NCBI GenBank assembly: GCA_048939245.1
Contig: JBHLPR010000043.1
Span: 1-18,243, forward strand
Length of the DNA stretch: 18,243 nt
DNA from: Promethearchaeota archaeon
GTDB lineage: Archaea > Asgardarchaeota > Hermodarchaeia > Hermodarchaeales > Hermodarchaeaceae
Direction: 5' to 3'
A model generated the notes under the pieces. That model saw only the letters and a list, made by a program, of their open reading frames with translations. It made no database searches and was not told the origin of the DNA. This document shows, one piece after another, positions 4,225 to 13,078 of this stretch (the stretch's first letter is position 1; every line of letters starts with the position of its first letter). The translations under genes and the position numbers were made by a program.

Positions 4225-4292
4225 GCAACGGTCATTTGATTTAGTGAGGATTTTAATAGCAATAGCACTCCTCTAGCAGTAGAGTGGTTCAA

Positions 4293-4940
4293 ATGACGGT
4301 TACCATCAAATGGCTAGCACACGCTAGCTTTCAAATTAAAGCGGATACAAAAATCATCTATATCGATCTTGAGCAAGGGGCTAATCCTAAGGAGCCCGCT
4401 GACATCATCCTTTCCACTCATTCTCACTACGATCACTGTGATCCAGAGAAGATCAAAAGTGTACGTAAAGACGATACCCTTGTCATCGCACCAGCTGATT
4501 GTAGGGCTAAAATTGGGGGCGAAGTCCATTCCCTGAAACCAGGCGAAGAGCATGCGGTTGGCGATATCCATATTCGTGCAGTTGAGGCATACAACCTAAC
4601 TCGGTTTCGCTCACCTGGGCAACCCTATCATCCCAAAGGGTTGGGTGTCGGTTATGTAATTAGGGCTGGTGGCAAAAGTATCTATCATGCTGGTGACACA
4701 GATTTCATTCCTGAAATGAAAGAGCTTGGTTCCATTGACGTTGCTCTTCTACCTGCTGGCGACACATATACCATGGACAATAAGGAAGCTGCAGATGCAG
4801 CGTTGGCAATCAAGCCCAAGGTCGCCATTGCCATGCATCTCTGGAATAAAGGCGACTCTGCATTCAGAAAGCATATTGAAGACAGCTCGAATATTCGTGT
4901 AGTTACTTTAGAAAAAGATGGCGAATTCGCACTCGATTAG
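4293..4940 (+). CDS. MBL-fold metallo-hydrolase (UPF0173/Lactamase_B_3-like)
   Basis: WLAHASFQI, THSHYDH metal motif, YHPKG, IYHAGDT, YTM, AMH. GTG 4284 is an alternative start. Confidence 0.92.
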   Translation: MTVTIKWLAHASFQIKADTKIIYIDLEQGANPKEPADIILSTHSHYDHCDPEKIKSVRKDDTLVIAPADCRAKIGGEVHSLKPGEEHAVGDIHIRAVEAYNLTRFRSPGQPYHPKGLGVGYVIRAGGKSIYHAGDTDFIPEMKELGSIDVALLPAGDTYTMDNKEAADAALAIKPKVAIAMHLWNKGDSAFRKHIEDSSNIRVVTLEKDGEFALD

Positions 4941-4988
4941 CCCAAATCGTGTAAATAGATTGATTCCGTCTTTCAGTGAGTACTTGAG

Positions 4989-5003
4989 AGAAATATTTTT
5001 AAT
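4989..5003 (+). promoter_or_regulatory. BRE/TATA-like promoter upstream of the candidate ncRNA
   Basis: AGAAATATTTTTAAT. The first 13 nt are identical to the box at 5215-5227 upstream of the ABC operon. Confidence 0.5.
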
Positions 5004-5026
5004 CTAGCCTAGGTTAACCCGATATC

Positions 5027-5186
5027 GAGGCATATCTGGTGGAATTGTTCAAACTGGATAATTAGCCCTTTTTGCCATGTGGATAGTGAGATTGGCGTTT
5101 CTTTTGTCAGTAGTCCCTTTGGGGTGATTCCAAGATGCCTGAGAAAGGAAAGTTTGCAGCGGTCAAATGCGACAGGGCTAGTCCAA
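5027..5186 (+). ncRNA. Candidate structured non-coding RNA of unknown family (~160 nt)
   Basis: At least five hand-identified helices, with G-U pairs favouring the + strand. It starts about 24 nt after a TATA-like box and the ORF track has no entry there. I do not recognise it as a known family. Confidence 0.5.
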
Positions 5187-5214
5187 ATAAGATTAGATAG
5201 TCATTAAATCTTAT

Positions 5215-5231
5215 AGAAATATTTTTATATT
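5215..5231 (+). promoter_or_regulatory. BRE/TATA-like promoter of the ABC-2 operon
   Basis: AGAAATATTTTTATATT, followed by a GGAGG RBS at 5260-5264 and ATG 5272. Confidence 0.6.
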
Positions 5232-5271
5232 AATCTCTGTTATTCCGCATTAAATTACAGGAGGCGTAGCC

Positions 5272-6321
5272 ATGCCCCCAAATCAGGAACCAATTGCAGA
5301 AATTAACAATGTAGTACGGATCTATACCAAACCCTTCCATCGTCCACGCAAAGGTGCTGCACGACGATTTATCGGCTTTCTTAAACGTGAAAAGCAAAAG
5401 ATCCGAGCACTCGATGATGTCAGTTTTGCCATTCACCCTGGTGAATGCGTTGCACTCCTTGGACCGAATGGGGCAGGCAAATCTACTACGGTCAAATTGC
5501 TTAGCGGCATCCTACACCCGACTTCAGGACAGGTGCGCCTTTTTGGCATGGATCCCTACCACAATCGCATCGCTTGTGCCATGCGGTATGGAGTCGTCTT
5601 TGGCCAGCGAACGCTGCTTTGGACACATGTTCCGGTGCTCGAGAGCTTGAAACTCTATCAGAAGATGTACAATGTCCCGAAACCCATCTTCGATGAACGC
5701 CTAAAGGAGTTCACCGAGATTCTGGATATCGAGCAACACCTTCATAATGCTCCTCGACGCCTTTCATTAGGCGAGCGGATGCGGTGCGAAATCATCGCTG
5801 CGTTACTCCACCAACCAGAGGTGATTTTCCTCGACGAACCCACTGTCGGGCTCGATGTCGTGGCTAAAAAACGGATCCGTGACTTCATTCGACGGGTTAA
5901 CCGTGAAGAGAATGTCACCGTTCTACTTTGCAGCCACAGTATGCGAGATGTCGAGGAACTCTCGGACCGCATCATACTTATCTCTCGAGGCAACATTAGG
6001 TTTGATGGACCCAAAAAACAGCTTAAACGTCAATGGAGTAATGAACGCAAGGTTCGAATTCTTTACAAGAAAGCCAAAGCCAGAAATTGGCAACGGCAAC
6101 TGAACGAGCTGCCCGGTGTTATCAATTTGGAAGTCAACAATGGGCAAGTGGAATTTCGCATCAATCAAGATCAGCTGCTAGTTTCTGACTTTCTCCAAAA
6201 TGCAATGACCCTTTTAGCAGTCGATGATATTCAAGTGACTGAGCCCAATCTGGAAGACATCATACGAGAAATCTTTGGCGAGGAAGAACGAGCCTCGAAC
6301 AAATCCCCGGAGGTCGTTTAG
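5272..6321 (+). CDS. ABC-2 type transporter ATP-binding protein (COG4586-like)
   Basis: GPNGAGKST, GVVFGQRTLLW, LSLGERMRCEI signature variant, FLDEPTVGLD, H-loop CSH. Confidence 0.95.
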   Translation: MPPNQEPIAEINNVVRIYTKPFHRPRKGAARRFIGFLKREKQKIRALDDVSFAIHPGECVALLGPNGAGKSTTVKLLSGILHPTSGQVRLFGMDPYHNRIACAMRYGVVFGQRTLLWTHVPVLESLKLYQKMYNVPKPIFDERLKEFTEILDIEQHLHNAPRRLSLGERMRCEIIAALLHQPEVIFLDEPTVGLDVVAKKRIRDFIRRVNREENVTVLLCSHSMRDVEELSDRIILISRGNIRFDGPKKQLKRQWSNERKVRILYKKAKARNWQRQLNELPGVINLEVNNGQVEFRINQDQLLVSDFLQNAMTLLAVDDIQVTEPNLEDIIREIFGEEERASNKSPEVV

Positions 6322-7152
6322 ATGGGAACTAAAGATGTCCTTCGTCAATTACGACTCCTACCCGACTATATTCGATTATCCTTTCTTCGAGTAGCTGAAA
6401 ACAAAATTCAGATTTTCGGGGCCTTCTTCAGCACATCCGTAAACCTAGCGATGTATGTGCTTTTTTGGGGCGTCATCACCTATCAAATCCCCATTCTCAC
6501 TGGATATGGCTGGGTTGTCTGGGGGCAAGGTGAACTCACATTTCTCATTGGAATGACCGAAGTCGCTTGGGGATTTGGGGCCTTTTTCTGGATGGGAATT
6601 TGGGAAACACACTGGTATATCACCGAAATCGGAATCGAAACATTTCAAATTCGTCCCGCTGGCTCAATTTACCAAATTCTGGCTACCTCCTTTTGGGCTG
6701 GAGGATTGGTCCAGGTTGGGGTTGGTGGGGTGATGTTAGCATTATCGGTGCTAGCCTTTGGATTAGTGGTAACTCCGTTTAGTATTGTGTTCGGAGTAAT
6801 CGCCTTACTGCTGGGACAGGCTGCTTTGTATCTATTGTGGGCCTGTCTGTGTTGTCTGGCGTTCTGGATTGGGAGAAATGAAGGGCTATTGGAAATTTCT
6901 GATGCGCTAGAGTATAACTTCGCAAGGATGCCCATTGATGTAATGCCTGTAGGAGTGCAGTACTTTTTGCTCTTTGTTTTTCCTGTTATCTTCATCTCCA
7001 CTGTACCCACAATGATAATGCTGAATCTGCTTCCATTGGGTCCTGCACTAATCTATCTAGGAATTGCGGGAGTGCTTGTGATTCTGTGGTTGCTAGTTCT
7101 TCGTGTGGTATGGAGTCGGGGACTCAGACGTTACCAACCTGTAGGAGGGTAG
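6322..7152 (+). CDS. ABC-2 family permease (DUF990-type)
   Basis: About six hydrophobic segments, RP motif, FARMPIDV, C-terminal GLRRYQPVGG. Abuts the ATPase stop codon. Confidence 0.88.
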   Translation: MGTKDVLRQLRLLPDYIRLSFLRVAENKIQIFGAFFSTSVNLAMYVLFWGVITYQIPILTGYGWVVWGQGELTFLIGMTEVAWGFGAFFWMGIWETHWYITEIGIETFQIRPAGSIYQILATSFWAGGLVQVGVGGVMLALSVLAFGLVVTPFSIVFGVIALLLGQAALYLLWACLCCLAFWIGRNEGLLEISDALEYNFARMPIDVMPVGVQYFLLFVFPVIFISTVPTMIMLNLLPLGPALIYLGIAGVLVILWLLVLRVVWSRGLRRYQPVGG

Positions 7153-7157
7153 ATACA

Positions 7158-7982
7158 ATGGCTGATCGAAAACGAATGGAAAGCTATATTGCGGTGGCCC
7201 GGATTTCCTTCCGAAATTCCCGGCAGTACACCGTAGATTTCCTGACCGGCTTTGCATTCTTTCCTACTCAACTCATTGCCTTATCGATAGTCTACTGGAT
7301 TGTTTATCTCCAATCCTGGCTTCTCAATGGTACCAACGTAATAGGTGGCTTCAACTATCCCGAACTCATCAGCTATTTATTTATAGCCCTGATTATTGCC
7401 CGTGCCCTGCCAAGGTGGCGGTTAAGTGTGCAAATCGAGCAAGATATTGATCGCGGTCCCTTAGTCTCATATCTCTCTAAACCCATTGATTACTCAGGCT
7501 TTCGCTTCTTCAGCGAACTTCCTCGTTCCATTCTCTACCTAATCTTCGGAAGTATCACCTATCTGATTGCTATGCTTTTCATCCCCCTACCGTTTCCAAC
7601 ACTAACGAACTTAATACTCTTCATTCCCTTCTTCATCATCGCCTATTTGGTTGCCTTCCTCTTGGTATTTACCATGTCATTGGGAACCTTCTGGGTTAAC
7701 CGCCAATGGTGGCTTCGCAACCTCCTCAGTCTACTCATGATCATCGCGGGTGGCGGACTTATCCCTCTAAGCTTCTTTCCTCCGATTATACAAACAGTAT
7801 TTAGCCTCTTACCCTTTCAATACTGTTACTACATTCCAGCCATTATCCTTCAGGGATATTATCTCCCCGAACAACTACTTCCTATCGCGTTGCTAAGCGT
7901 TATCTGGCTCTTGATTCTTTGGATATTAGCCCGTATCATATGGGGTCTTGGTCGACGAAGGTATGAAGGACCTGGTGGTTAG
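7158..7982 (+). CDS. ABC-2 family permease (DUF990-type), second subunit
   Basis: DIDRGPLVSYLSKPIDY, GGGLIPLSFFP, LPFQY..YIP, C-terminal GRRRYEGPGG. ATG 7158 (MADRKR) is preferred to the overlapping 7086 start. Confidence 0.9.
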   Translation: MADRKRMESYIAVARISFRNSRQYTVDFLTGFAFFPTQLIALSIVYWIVYLQSWLLNGTNVIGGFNYPELISYLFIALIIARALPRWRLSVQIEQDIDRGPLVSYLSKPIDYSGFRFFSELPRSILYLIFGSITYLIAMLFIPLPFPTLTNLILFIPFFIIAYLVAFLLVFTMSLGTFWVNRQWWLRNLLSLLMIIAGGGLIPLSFFPPIIQTVFSLLPFQYCYYIPAIILQGYYLPEQLLPIALLSVIWLLILWILARIIWGLGRRRYEGPGG

Positions 7983-12601: not shown

Positions 12602-13078
12602 ATGGCGGTTGGACGATTTCAAGTCATGGCCGTTTTACAGGCAGCACGCGCTCATATACTTGGATTAGCGCTTCCCTCTGCAAAAAGTTGGGGGTTAAAC
12701 CGGGCAATTTTCTATGCGGCCGCAAAACGCGGATTTAAAGGGCAAAAGCGTGTAAAACGATCCCGAAGTGAAGTAAAAGAAAAACCCATTAGCGATACTC
12801 CCGAAGCTTTTCATCTCGGTAGTGAGGTTGCCTTCAAGGCTCCAGAAGAAGACGGTCCCCTTTACTTTACAATTGGTGGAAAGGTTCAAACTGAAGCAGA
12901 ATTTACTCGTCAAATCGAAGCACGGTTTGGTGAATCCTTTACTCAGGCGTGGAAAGAAGCCTTGGAGTATGTGAAAAGCTTCGATGAAAAGACACTACTT
13001 TCGCAATCAGGATTTTATAATTCGGTGTACAAGCCAAAACGAGATGAATTAGCTTCGAAATGGTCTCAATCCGGTTAA
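12602..13078 (+). CDS. Uncharacterised protein
   Basis: Clean ORF with a globular-looking N-terminal block GRFQVMAVLQAARA...AKSWGLNRAIFYAAAKRGF, a basic linker and a helical C-terminus. No function recognised. TTG 12569 is an alternative start. Confidence 0.8.
   Translation: MAVGRFQVMAVLQAARAHILGLALPSAKSWGLNRAIFYAAAKRGFKGQKRVKRSRSEVKEKPISDTPEAFHLGSEVAFKAPEEDGPLYFTIGGKVQTEAEFTRQIEARFGESFTQAWKEALEYVKSFDEKTLLSQSGFYNSVYKPKRDELASKWSQSG

Follow-up and report, generated by a model that had tools for sequence, protein, structure and literature searches.

A conserved RNA element with a probable 8-codon mini-gene upstream of an ABC-2 exporter operon in Hermodarchaeota-type Asgard archaea

What occupies the gap upstream of the ABC exporter operon in this Hermodarchaeaceae genome, and does it act on the genes that follow? 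The window analyzed here is a stretch of 18,243 nucleotides from a Promethearchaeota archaeon (assembly GCA_048939245.1, contig JBHLPR010000043.1, forward strand). A first-pass annotation, made from the letters alone, had read the gap as a stand-alone non-coding RNA with its own promoter, folded into a four-way junction with a crossing helix. Comparison with related genomes and a covariance model identify the gap as a conserved plus-strand RNA element, which upholds one half of that reading. The other half, a purely non-coding nature, is put in doubt: a mini-ORF led by a Shine-Dalgarno-like motif had been overlooked in the 5′ hairpin, and it moves the interpretation away from a non-coding sRNA, ribozyme or switch and closer to a leader that is translated. 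The features discussed below are collected in Table 1.

Table 1. Features of the element and the adjoining operon (window coordinates).
Feature	Position	Strand	Observation
BRE/TATA-like box 1 (AGAAATATTTTTAA), putative promoter of the element	4989–5002	+	kept, by eye, in 20/20 copies (groups A, B and D)
GAGGC: start of conservation, predicted 5′ end, Shine-Dalgarno-like motif	5027–5031	+	12 nt before RUG
P1: 5027–5030 with 5067–5070 (GAGG/CCTT)	5027–5070	+	92% of cells pair, group A
P2 hairpin: 5033–5037 with 5056–5060	5033–5060	+	89% of cells pair; two-sided change in 3/5 pairs
Mini-ORF GTG..TAG, 8 codons (M/V-E-L-F-K-L-D-N)	5039–5065	+	conserved start, frame signature
P3 hairpin: 5073–5077 with 5093–5097	5073–5097	+	predicted by RNAfold in 23/23 copies
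U-rich tract 3′ of P3 (TTTCTTTT)	5098–5105	+	U4–U5 run, groups A, B and D
P4b hairpin: 5107–5110 with 5119–5122	5107–5122	+	group A only, 70% of cells pair
Purine-rich conserved block (GAGAAAGGAAAG)	5141–5152	+	conserved in groups A and B; absent in C
P5 hairpin: 5154–5158 with 5168–5172	5154–5172	+	85% of cells pair, group A
Conserved 3′ tail (GGGCTAGTCC ... AGATTAG)	5175–5196	+	motifs kept in four groups
BRE/TATA-like box 2, includes T5 run	5215–5228	+	kept in all copies, paralogs included
ABC ATPase gene start: GGAGG and ATG	5260–5274	+	GAGG at −11 from ATG
ABC-2 exporter operon: DrrA-like ATPase and two ABC2_membrane_6 permeases	5272–7982	+	Pfam and NCBIfam matches; orthologue downstream of element

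Distribution and operon linkage

Within one Asgard order, covariance-model searches recover the element from 17 of 19 genomes; 132 other genomes of the same phylum gave no match, and among the genomes searched it is restricted to one family of Asgard (Hermodarchaeota-type) archaea. The two genomes of the order without it likewise lack a match to the ABC gene, and both assemblies are incomplete. One copy per genome is the rule, as in the window's genome, with two tandem copies in three genomes and on one metagenome contig. In every element-bearing genome, one copy stands immediately before the same ABC-2 exporter operon, and this linkage holds across two genera. Identity to the window's copy is 50–78%, whereas four-fold degenerate sites in the neighboring ABC gene reach 28–58%; judged from the aligned sequences, the element is under purifying selection.

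A diverged paralogous copy with its own box 2 is found at four loci, where it precedes a different gene, a 45-aa ORF; the paralogs do not adjoin a transporter gene. At three of the loci compared (L002–L004), a GC-rich 430-nt stretch between tandem copies carries a small ORF; this stretch has no Rfam match and a fold z of about −1.3.

Rfam 15 at the gathering threshold gives no match in the window or in three related loci, and the first reading had likewise left the RNA without a family. Permissive E-values brought up no credible family in the window or the related loci either; the best sub-threshold match is TarB (13.3 bits vs. a threshold of 80; E 7.7). No tRNA or tmRNA was found. Two guide RNA classes were considered and, on motifs read by eye, rejected. 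For a C/D-box sRNA, the C box (RUGAUGA) is missing, and CUGA at 5139–5142 becomes CGGA, AUGA or UCAG in relatives; for an H/ACA sRNA, the ACA in GCGACAGG turns into AUA, AUU or ACG in relatives, and Rfam yields nothing. No earlier description of the element was found in the literature.

Promoter-like boxes and the mini-ORF

Both boxes have the geometry of archaeal BRE/TATA promoters, a TATA-like A/T-rich octamer with a purine-rich stretch directly 5′ of it; the T-run is preceded by AGAAA or AGTAA. The hexamers TTTTTA, TTTTAA and TTTATA are enriched 3–4.5-fold upstream of genes in the window's genome, and a scan for sigma-70 promoters and terminators returned no match on the plus strand. In archaea the octamer is expected to end about 24 nt before the transcript start. 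The distance from the end of box 1 to GAGG, where conservation begins, is 22–23 nt in 20/20 copies of groups A, B and D when measured by eye (a script gave 22–23 nt in 15 copies, the other five being distorted by T-runs in the spacer), and the spacer itself is variable in sequence. This fixed spacing supports the 5′ box of the first reading as promoter-like, and box 1 is the putative promoter of the element itself.

Box 2 likewise proved to sit where a promoter of the ABC operon had been suspected: its center lies about 48 nt before the ABC ATG, within the genome-wide peak. Since it stands between the leader and the operon, the operon may be expressed independently of the leader. The identical 13-mer reported at 4989–5001 and 5215–5227 is indeed present, and these are its only two exact sites in the 2.52-Mb assembly. 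With up to two mismatches there are 88 matches in the genome, roughly what composition predicts, so we rejected a frequent special repeat motif and regard the 13-mer as a member of the TATA-like class.

The comparison of copies covers 23 sequences in groups A, B, C and D, with 13 in group A and 19 main copies overall. Positions 2–3 (A, G) of GAGGC are invariant, and G stands at positions 1 and 4 in 22/23 copies. Relative to start codons across the genome, GAGG has its peak at −15 to −11, and the motif at −12 from the mini-ORF fits this distance. The RUG start is kept in 22/23 copies among variable neighboring columns, codon 3 has U as its second base in 22/23, and 7–8 codons with an in-frame UAG are present in 16 of the 19 main copies; 22 copies are free of frame-0 stops over the first six codons. 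The synonymous fraction is 0.11–0.13 in frame 0 vs. 0.06 in the other two frames, and the BLOSUM score is −0.1 vs. −0.9 to −1.0, amounting to a modest coding signature. Between the window's copy and group C, the F-K-L-D codons show synonymous differences only. Part of group A conserves the peptide poorly (E/R, L/M/K, F/N/H/Y), the stop or frame is lost in three main copies, and one paralog has ACG where the others start. A short ORF with conserved ribosome-binding site, start and stop, as in leader peptides, is thus present, and we consider it a probable 8-codon mini-gene. It sits inside P2 with its stop codon 5–12 nt before P3.

The gap had been described as having no entry in the list of open reading frames. 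A new ORF listing made here does hold a 42-aa GTG frame (5079–5207), which is unconserved; the conserved 8-codon frame (5039–5065) fell below the threshold of this listing. The longer frame was rejected as a coding sequence: 1-nt indels in relatives break it, and it carries no coding signature. A second ORF from an AUG in the P3 loop was likewise rejected, its start being unconserved in groups B, C and D and at loci L006 and L011.

Hairpins and conserved blocks

All complementary segments named in the first-pass annotation are found in the window. They comprise the closing helix TAGCCCT 5063–5069/AGGGCTA 5174–5180 and its extension TGGA 5055–5058/TCCA 5182–5185, three arms (GCCA 5074–5077/TGGC 5093–5096; a 13-nt arm, 5098–5110/5139–5151; TTGCA 5154–5158/TGCGA 5168–5172), and the three crossing helices. 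Their assembly into a four-way junction is not borne out: over 13 orthologues the nested fold pairs 73.9% of cells with a covariation of 0.141, equal to the shuffle mean of 0.140 (215/500), and pair 47–160 of the closing helix is kept in only 5/13 sequences. The crossing helices (60% of cells pair) score below the shuffle mean. On this comparison the four-way junction and the pseudoknot are single-sequence features and not conserved. The folding energy of the window's copy is also unremarkable (−46.5 kcal/mol vs. −44.7 ± 4.2 in shuffles, z −0.44; minus strand z −0.52), an outcome that the first reading had itself named as speaking against it. Individual arms fared better. GCCA/TGGC corresponds to P3 and TTGCA/TGCGA to P5, and both are kept with compensatory changes; the U-rich/purine-rich center of the long arm persists, but its ends fail in relatives.

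In group A a five-hairpin model pairs 86% of cells vs. 38–46% when partners are slid, seven pairs change on both sides vs. 3.6 expected (9/500), and covariation is 0.202 vs. 0.173 (24/500); these covariation tests are of moderate strength, and relatedness among the copies inflates the values. Over all 23 copies, 72.6% of cells pair vs. 37–46% with slid partners (12/500). The alifold energy against column shuffles gives z −3.1, with a low SCI of 0.24. P2, P3 and P5 persist in relatives with compensatory changes, their stems being built from other sequences in groups B, C and D.

P1 joins the Shine-Dalgarno-like motif to the bases immediately 3′ of the mini-ORF stop; it shows one-sided changes only and no compensatory ones, and AGGC/GCCU is kept in groups B and C. 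P2, which encloses the start and most of the mini-ORF, is rebuilt from UAUCC/GGAUA to AGCUA/UAGCU in group B, AUCUCG/CGGGAU in L010 and UCGAU/AUCGA in L011. The P3 stem reads CGCCA/UGGCG in group A, CUGCUAAA/UUUAGCAG in group B and CGCUGACC/GGGUUAGUG in group C, with UGUGGA of the loop kept. Nine of the 13 group A copies share exactly the same 15-nt loop (5078–5092), and the remaining four show single-base variants. A K-turn or K-loop in P3 was rejected by eye on motif misfit.

Groups A, B and D carry a U4–U5 run within 3–8 nt of P3, at which transcription may pause or terminate; the U tract, the purine-rich block and P5 are all missing from group C. The purine-rich block can pair with the U-rich tract, a pairing kept in group A. 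P4b changes on both sides in 3/6 pairs of group A and was not recovered in groups B, C and D. A further candidate helix proposed by RNAalifold, P6 (UUGGAU with GUCCAA in the tail), shows one-sided transitions only and competes with P4b, in which two-sided changes are seen. The P5 core UCG/CGA is extended by CA/UG (group A), AA/UU (L008, L009), UC/GG (group B) or GA..UC (paralogs), its innermost pair being A-U, C-G or G-C.

The tail motifs GGGNUAG(U/C)C and (A/U)UUAA are common to all four groups. In group C the tail and the mini-ORF initiation region form a long-range 14-bp helix; as a family feature this pairing was rejected, being broken in L047 and in group A and strong only in group C. We make no claim for a pairing between the tail and the ABC start region: each is close to a palindrome (GGCUAGCC-like), and covariation is not seen. 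In group A, but not in groups B and C, the start region of the mini-ORF can pair instead with the 5′ strand and the loop of P3. No conserved, mutually exclusive pair of terminator and antiterminator helices was found in the copies compared.

Candidate modes of action

The element most likely regulates the exporter. The reading we favor, tentatively, is a separately transcribed, translation-coupled leader RNA that acts in cis on the operon. A lineage-specific RNA of ~170–200 nt would be made from its own BRE/TATA promoter, box 1, starting at or just before GAGG (~5024–5027); a start exactly at GAGG would place the Shine-Dalgarno-like motif at the extreme 5′ end of the RNA, which counts against this reading. 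Its 5′ translation unit (GAGG, 8 nt, GUG/AUG, 7–8 codons, UAG) would be folded into P1, between the Shine-Dalgarno-like motif and the bases after the stop, and P2, between the spacer and the last codons. P3 would follow 5–12 nt beyond the stop, then the U tract in most copies, with P4b, P5 and the tail extending as far as the T-rich box 2. A ribosome engaged on the mini-ORF would preclude the P1/P2/P3 helices and vice versa, and the mode of translation, free or stalled at the end, would decide the fold of the RNA. The fold would in turn determine if box 1 transcripts stop in the U tracts or continue past box 2 into the operon, and exporter expression would be modulated in cis. The paralogous copy before another gene supports a cis-acting module.

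A more specific form of this proposal is possible but doubtful: an Asgard leader that senses ribosomes, in which translation of or stalling on the 8-codon uORF would remodel the RNA and control termination or read-through into the ABC-2 operon. Transcription and translation are coupled in archaea. To our knowledge, attenuation, i.e., translation-coupled control of RNA fate, is not established in any archaeon, and such a leader would be without precedent in Archaea as a described attenuator of the leader-peptide type, built from archaeal parts (BRE/TATA promoter, oligo-U termination, tandem promoters). The element is a concrete, testable candidate: it is compact, with clear promoter geometry, a mini-ORF at the Shine-Dalgarno spacing of its own genome, compensatory hairpins and a fixed target operon.

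The closest bacterial counterparts are leader-peptide attenuators and antibiotic-sensing uORFs before resistance or exporter genes, such as ermCL, catA86L/cmlAL and bmrB-bmrCD. The element shares with them a leader whose 5′ end carries, behind a Shine-Dalgarno motif, an ORF of fewer than 10 codons, a stop within ribosome reach of a hairpin, a U tract next to it in most copies, and loose peptide conservation with start, stop and length kept; as with the exporter uORFs, the downstream genes encode an ABC exporter. Unlike the bacterial systems, it belongs to an archaeal (Asgard) host, has a promoter-like box ahead of the operon, a feature foreign to classical attenuators, lacks a conserved terminator/antiterminator pair and has ~100 nt of further conserved RNA beyond the first hairpin, and the P3 loop is large (15 nt) and near-invariant, unlike that of a terminator. 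Since box 2 intervenes between the hairpin with its U tract and the operon, and the U tract is missing in group C, we do not file the element as a leader-peptide attenuator; its working principle is only proposed.

Like riboswitch-type leaders, the element precedes a transporter operon and combines several conserved helices with unpaired nucleotides of high conservation. It differs from them in its translated-looking ORF, the second promoter-like box downstream, and its restriction to one family; it matches no known riboswitch class in Rfam, and no expression platform could be identified.

A stand-alone structured sRNA acting in trans is conceivable but rather doubtful. Transcribed from box 1 and ending in the T-rich part of box 2, it would contact a protein or target RNAs through the invariant P3 loop and the other conserved unpaired blocks; on this view the mini-ORF is incidental, and nothing more than synteny places the RNA beside the ABC operon. 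The promoter-like box of its own, the T-rich end and the gene-like occurrence of one copy per genome suit such an RNA, box 2 would supply the operon's own promoter, and attenuation alone is insufficient to explain the near-identical P3 loop and the long conserved single-stranded blocks. However, RUG and GAGG at the genome's Shine-Dalgarno distance and the frame-0 signature are hard to account for, the operon linkage extends over two genera, the paralog precedes another gene, and no target was identified. Intergenic archaeal sRNAs and dual-function (coding plus regulatory) sRNAs such as SgrS/SgrT and SR1/SR1P resemble the element: shared traits are a promoter of their own (putative here), a size of ~200 nt, hairpins whose unpaired loops are conserved as well, and a tiny ORF inside a structured RNA. 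In contrast to these sRNAs, the element is strictly linked to an operon (the paralog to another gene) and shows no identified target complementarity, and its ORF is far shorter than those of known dual-function sRNAs. We know of few regulatory RNAs described in Asgard archaea, and a literature search found none. Even if only a lineage-specific sRNA, the element would be a new RNA family, of local interest because it is confined to one family of uncultured archaea.

It is unlikely that the conservation reflects DNA, with transcription-factor sites controlling box 2 and a functionless RNA. Half-palindromes GGC(N)UA/UAGCC at the 5′ end, after the mini-ORF, in the tail and in the ABC start region would fit such sites, as would conservation reaching to box 2. 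Against them stand the stems rebuilt by compensatory changes, with G-U pairs on the plus strand only, and a negligible minus-strand consensus fold (−3.6 kcal/mol); this model would also give no role to box 1, conserved as it is and at constant spacing from the point where conservation sets in.

Slightly less likely still is that the 7–8-residue peptide is the product, for instance a small signal or substrate of the adjacent exporter, with the RNA structure tuning its synthesis. The conserved translation start, the partial conservation of x-[LIVM]-F-K-[LKQ]-D and the neighboring exporter speak for a peptide. However, its sequence varies strongly within one genus, three copies extend to 15–25 residues, the ~130 nt downstream are more conserved than the mini-ORF, and the paralogs have no transporter gene beside them.

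Highly improbable, finally, is a minus-strand gene or pseudogene in the start-less frame, or a mobile insertion with a 13-bp target-site duplication. The frame is stop-free over ~55 codons in most group A copies, yet it has no conserved start codon (the window's frame contains no Met), frame-shifting 1-nt indels within the element set 7/13 group A copies apart from the window, and its synonymous fraction (0.153, within the 0.11–0.19 of the other five frames) and BLOSUM score (0.01, likewise no better than theirs) give no coding signature. The insertion was suggested by the identity of the two 13-mers in the window, with no terminal inverted repeats seen, but the boxes differ from each other in most relatives, they keep the same locus throughout the order, and the element is single-copy in the genome.

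Occurrence and fold of the element

The window derives from contig C35 of a 2.52-Mb, 88%-complete MAG, and record titles of its close relatives read Candidatus Hermodarchaeota or Promethearchaeota (Asgard archaea). BLASTN matched the gap upstream of the ABC-2 exporter operon in 10 of the 14 other species of the genus (69–76% identity), with the ATPase orthologue directly downstream in the related loci fetched. A degenerate pattern of the most conserved block recovered the same set of loci from the species collection and added two metagenome contigs. Beside the 13 orthologues of group A, inspection upstream of the ATPase orthologue in genomes without a BLASTN match located diverged versions: three in additional species of this genus (group B) and three in the family's second genus (group C). 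A second, diverged copy (group D) lies ~500–700 nt upstream of the main copy in three genomes and one metagenome contig. The covariance model, with 22 copies as input, detected the element in 17 of the 19 order genomes and had no hit in 132 further genomes sampled from elsewhere in the phylum; the two order genomes without it likewise yielded no ABC gene match and are incomplete assemblies. Identity to the window's copy is 0.50–0.78 versus only 0.28–0.58 at the four-fold degenerate sites of the neighbouring ATPase gene, indicating purifying selection on the element. A covariance search of Rfam gave no match at the gathering threshold, and what it returned at E up to 10 was noise alone (TarB, 13 bits), in line with the first-pass annotation, which could name no family. 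The RNA element is real, new and restricted to one family of Asgard archaea.

The first-pass annotation had proposed a four-way junction with crossing helices. All complementary segments that it quoted are present at the positions given and two of its arms are retained here as P3 and P5; the observation was correct as sequence, but the fold is largely wrong. Among the 13 orthologues, 73.9% of cells of the nested junction pair, its covariation (0.141) equals the shuffle mean (0.140; 215/500), and there are breaks in the closing helix and at either end of the long arm. For the crossing helices, 60% of cells are paired and the score falls short of the shuffle average. Folding energy is likewise unremarkable, with a window MFE of −46.5 kcal/mol versus −44.7 ± 4.2 in dinucleotide shuffles (z = −0.44; minus strand, −0.52).

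A simpler model of five helices (P1, P2, P3, P4b and P5) holds better. In group A, 86% of cells pair versus 38–46% with partners slid, two-sided pair changes number 7 versus 3.6 in shuffles (9/500) and covariation is 0.202 versus 0.173 ± 0.016 (24/500), while 72.6% of cells pair versus 37–46% slid (12/500) when all 23 copies are aligned to the model; these figures are moderate and inflated by the relatedness of the copies. Comparison between groups is more telling. For the P3 stem, group A has CGCCA/UGGCG, group B CUGCUAAA/UUUAGCAG and group C CGCUGACC/GGGUUAGUG; UGUGGA within its loop is retained throughout, and RNAfold predicts the hairpin in 23/23 copies. P2 is UAUCC/GGAUA in group A, AGCUA/UAGCU in B, and AUCUCG/CGGGAU and UCGAU/AUCGA in loci L010 and L011. 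P5 combines a constant UCG/CGA core with a group-specific extension, the innermost pair being A-U, C-G or G-C. Support for P4b is limited to group A, and P1 shows no covariation. The group A consensus-fold energy lies 3.1 sd below column shuffles, with an SCI of only 0.24; the element is not a compact fold but a chain of short hairpins with lengthy conserved stretches of single strand.

Coordinates of the element, its parts and neighbouring features (window positions unless a locus or contig is named)
Feature	Coordinates	Strand	Remark
MBL-fold hydrolase gene	4284–4940	+	upstream flank of gap
Gap	4941–5271		331 nt, between MBL-fold gene and ABC-2 exporter operon
Shared 13-mer of boxes 1 and 2	4989–5001; 5215–5227
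P1	5027–5030 / 5067–5070
P2	5033–5037 / 5056–5060
Mini-ORF	5039–5065		M/V-E-L-F-K-L-D-N
P3	5073–5077 / 5093–5097
P4b	5107–5110 / 5119–5122
P5	5154–5158 / 5168–5172
Palindrome half-sites	5027–5031; 5063–5068; 5175–5184; 5261–5271		RNA 5′ end; after mini-ORF; 3′ tail; ABC start region
GGAGGC/GCCCC pairing	5260–5279		ABC gene start
DrrA-like ATPase gene	5272–6321		first operon gene, downstream flank of gap
Two ABC2_membrane_6 permease genes	6322–7152; 7086–7982		rest of operon
Group D copy	L002:847–1030	+
Group D copy	L003:2261–2443	−
Group D copy	L004:2233–2416	−
Group D copy	L025:5027–5227	−
45-aa basic ORF	L003:2010–2147	−	own GGAGG, between tandem copies
Homologous 46-aa ORF	C118, about 12790–12930		window's own genome
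Group C element	L051:2596–2820	−	likewise L052, L049 (second genus)
GNAT acetyltransferase gene	L006:1784–2569	−	equivalent position in L005, L007–L011

Promoter-like boxes and the mini-ORF

In the alignments, conserved box 1 is followed by ~22 nt of unconserved spacer, and conservation restarts sharply at YGAGGC. Counted by eye, the T-run/AA end of the box lies 22–23 nt from GAGG in 20/20 copies of groups A, B and D; a script returned this spacing in 15/20, the other five being distorted by T-runs in the spacer. The archaeal TATA box is centred near −26/−27, and the spacing has the geometry of such a box and its start site. TTTAAA, TTTATA, TTTTAA and TTTTTA are enriched 3–4.5-fold upstream of this genome's genes, peaking at −70 to −30. 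Box 2, preceding the ATPase gene, is as conserved as box 1, paralogs included; between it and the ATG lie an unconserved spacer, GGAGG and a further 7 nt. Their contexts thus amount to one layout twice in tandem: box, ~23 nt, GAGGC, 7–8 nt, start codon. The 13-mer shared by both boxes, already recognized in the first-pass annotation, has no other exact occurrence in the whole assembly. Because in most relatives one box is unlike the other, and the locus is the same throughout the order, the boxes are not a target-site duplication, and a mobile insertion is a less likely reading.

Half-sites (GGC-N-UA / UAGCC) of a GGCUAGCC-like palindrome recur in the window; this allows many alternative pairings, or a shared protein-binding site. 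A regulatory region acting purely at the DNA level is less likely.

Nearly all P2-loop columns are variable (entropy 1.0–1.9 bits) except three adjacent ones, R-U-G (G in 10 and A in 13 copies, then U in 22/23 and G in 23/23), located 12 nt downstream of GAGG. Across the genome, the position of GAGG relative to the first ATG of long ORFs shows a sharp peak at −15 to −11, and in the ATPase gene it is −11. In 16 of the 19 main copies (groups A–C) the frame from RUG runs 7–8 codons to an in-frame UAG belonging to conserved AUAGCC: 8 codons in 10/13 copies of group A, 7 in 3/3 of B and 3/3 of C. The exceptions are two copies extending to the P3-loop UAG and one frame-shifted copy. Over the first six codons, frame 0 has stops in 0/22 copies versus many in the other two frames, a synonymous fraction of 0.11–0.13 versus about 0.06, and a mean BLOSUM of changed codons of about −0.1 versus −0.9 to −1.0. 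Codon 3 has U at its second position in 22/23 copies, whereas positions one and three rank with the most variable columns, and the F, K, L and D codons show only synonymous differences when the window is compared with group C. Counting against the mini-ORF, the peptide varies considerably within group A and one paralog has ACG instead of the start; a functional 8-residue peptide is a less likely explanation.

Downstream of the mini-ORF no coding frame stands out on either strand. The start-less minus-strand frame, weighed earlier as a possible protein, stays open in many copies, but with a synonymous fraction of 0.153 and a BLOSUM of 0.01 it resembles the other frames, and 1-nt indels relative to the window occur in 7/13 group A copies, making a minus-strand gene less likely.

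A putative translation-coupled leader

P1 pairs the Shine-Dalgarno-like GAGG with bases right after the mini-ORF stop codon, and P2 pairs the GAGG-to-start spacer with the last two codons, so that a ribosome on the mini-ORF is incompatible with both. Codon 6 ends in G in 11/13 group A copies despite a variable amino acid, an argument for the P2 helix. The distance from the stop to the P3 5′ strand downstream is 5 nt in A, 10 nt in B and 12 nt in C, and ribosome footprints imply that a ribosome at the stop codon would also be incompatible with P3. Oligo-U is the archaeal termination signal; U4–U5 follows P3 in groups A, B and D (absent in C), and box 2 contains T5. Together with the ribosome/helix exclusion, these tracts suggest a translation-coupled leader, whose fold would decide where box-1 transcripts end and whether box 2 is crossed. 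We liken it to bacterial attenuators in working principle only, not in class membership, since a conserved terminator/antiterminator pair was sought and not found and box 2 would supply the operon with a promoter of its own.

The element is most likely a translated leader of the ABC-2 exporter operon; its transcription, RNA ends and translation are all inferred. A trans-acting sRNA is a serious alternative and would better account for the 15-nt P3 loop, which is nearly invariant, and for the long single-stranded blocks that are conserved. Paralogs with their own box 2 precede another small gene, an arrangement more in keeping with a cis-acting module than with an independent sRNA gene, though not proof of one.

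Paralogs and neighbouring genes

Each group D copy is a whole module (box 1, GAGG, RUG, P2, P3, P5, tail, box 2) with a longer mini-ORF of 15–22 codons; in L025 the P3 loop is expanded to ~34 nt. The 45-aa ORF between tandem copies has no Pfam family and shares 62% identity over 42 residues with the 46-aa ORF; an in-frame stop in the L002 version leaves a 35-aa ORF. In group C elements the GAGG-spacer-start unit is partly duplicated at the 5′ side (GAGGAGGUAUCC..GUG precedes GAGGCUAUCUUGAUG), and there is a long-range helix of 14 bp (GGCUAUCUUGAUGA with UCAUCGGGGUAGCC), whose formation would bury the mini-ORF start; P5 and the purine block are missing.

Most relatives carry a GNAT acetyltransferase gene (259–264 aa; Pfam Acetyltransf_1) between the MBL-fold gene and the element. 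The window lacks it, the MBL gene ending 48 nt before box 1. The 67-nt overlap of the permease ORFs as listed stems from the GTG start assigned to the second, whose true start is probably further downstream. At the ABC gene, GGAGGC can pair with GCCCC right after the ATG (Met-Pro codons); kept in 8/8 aligned orthologues without covariation, this pairing may form a hairpin sequestering the Shine-Dalgarno motif.
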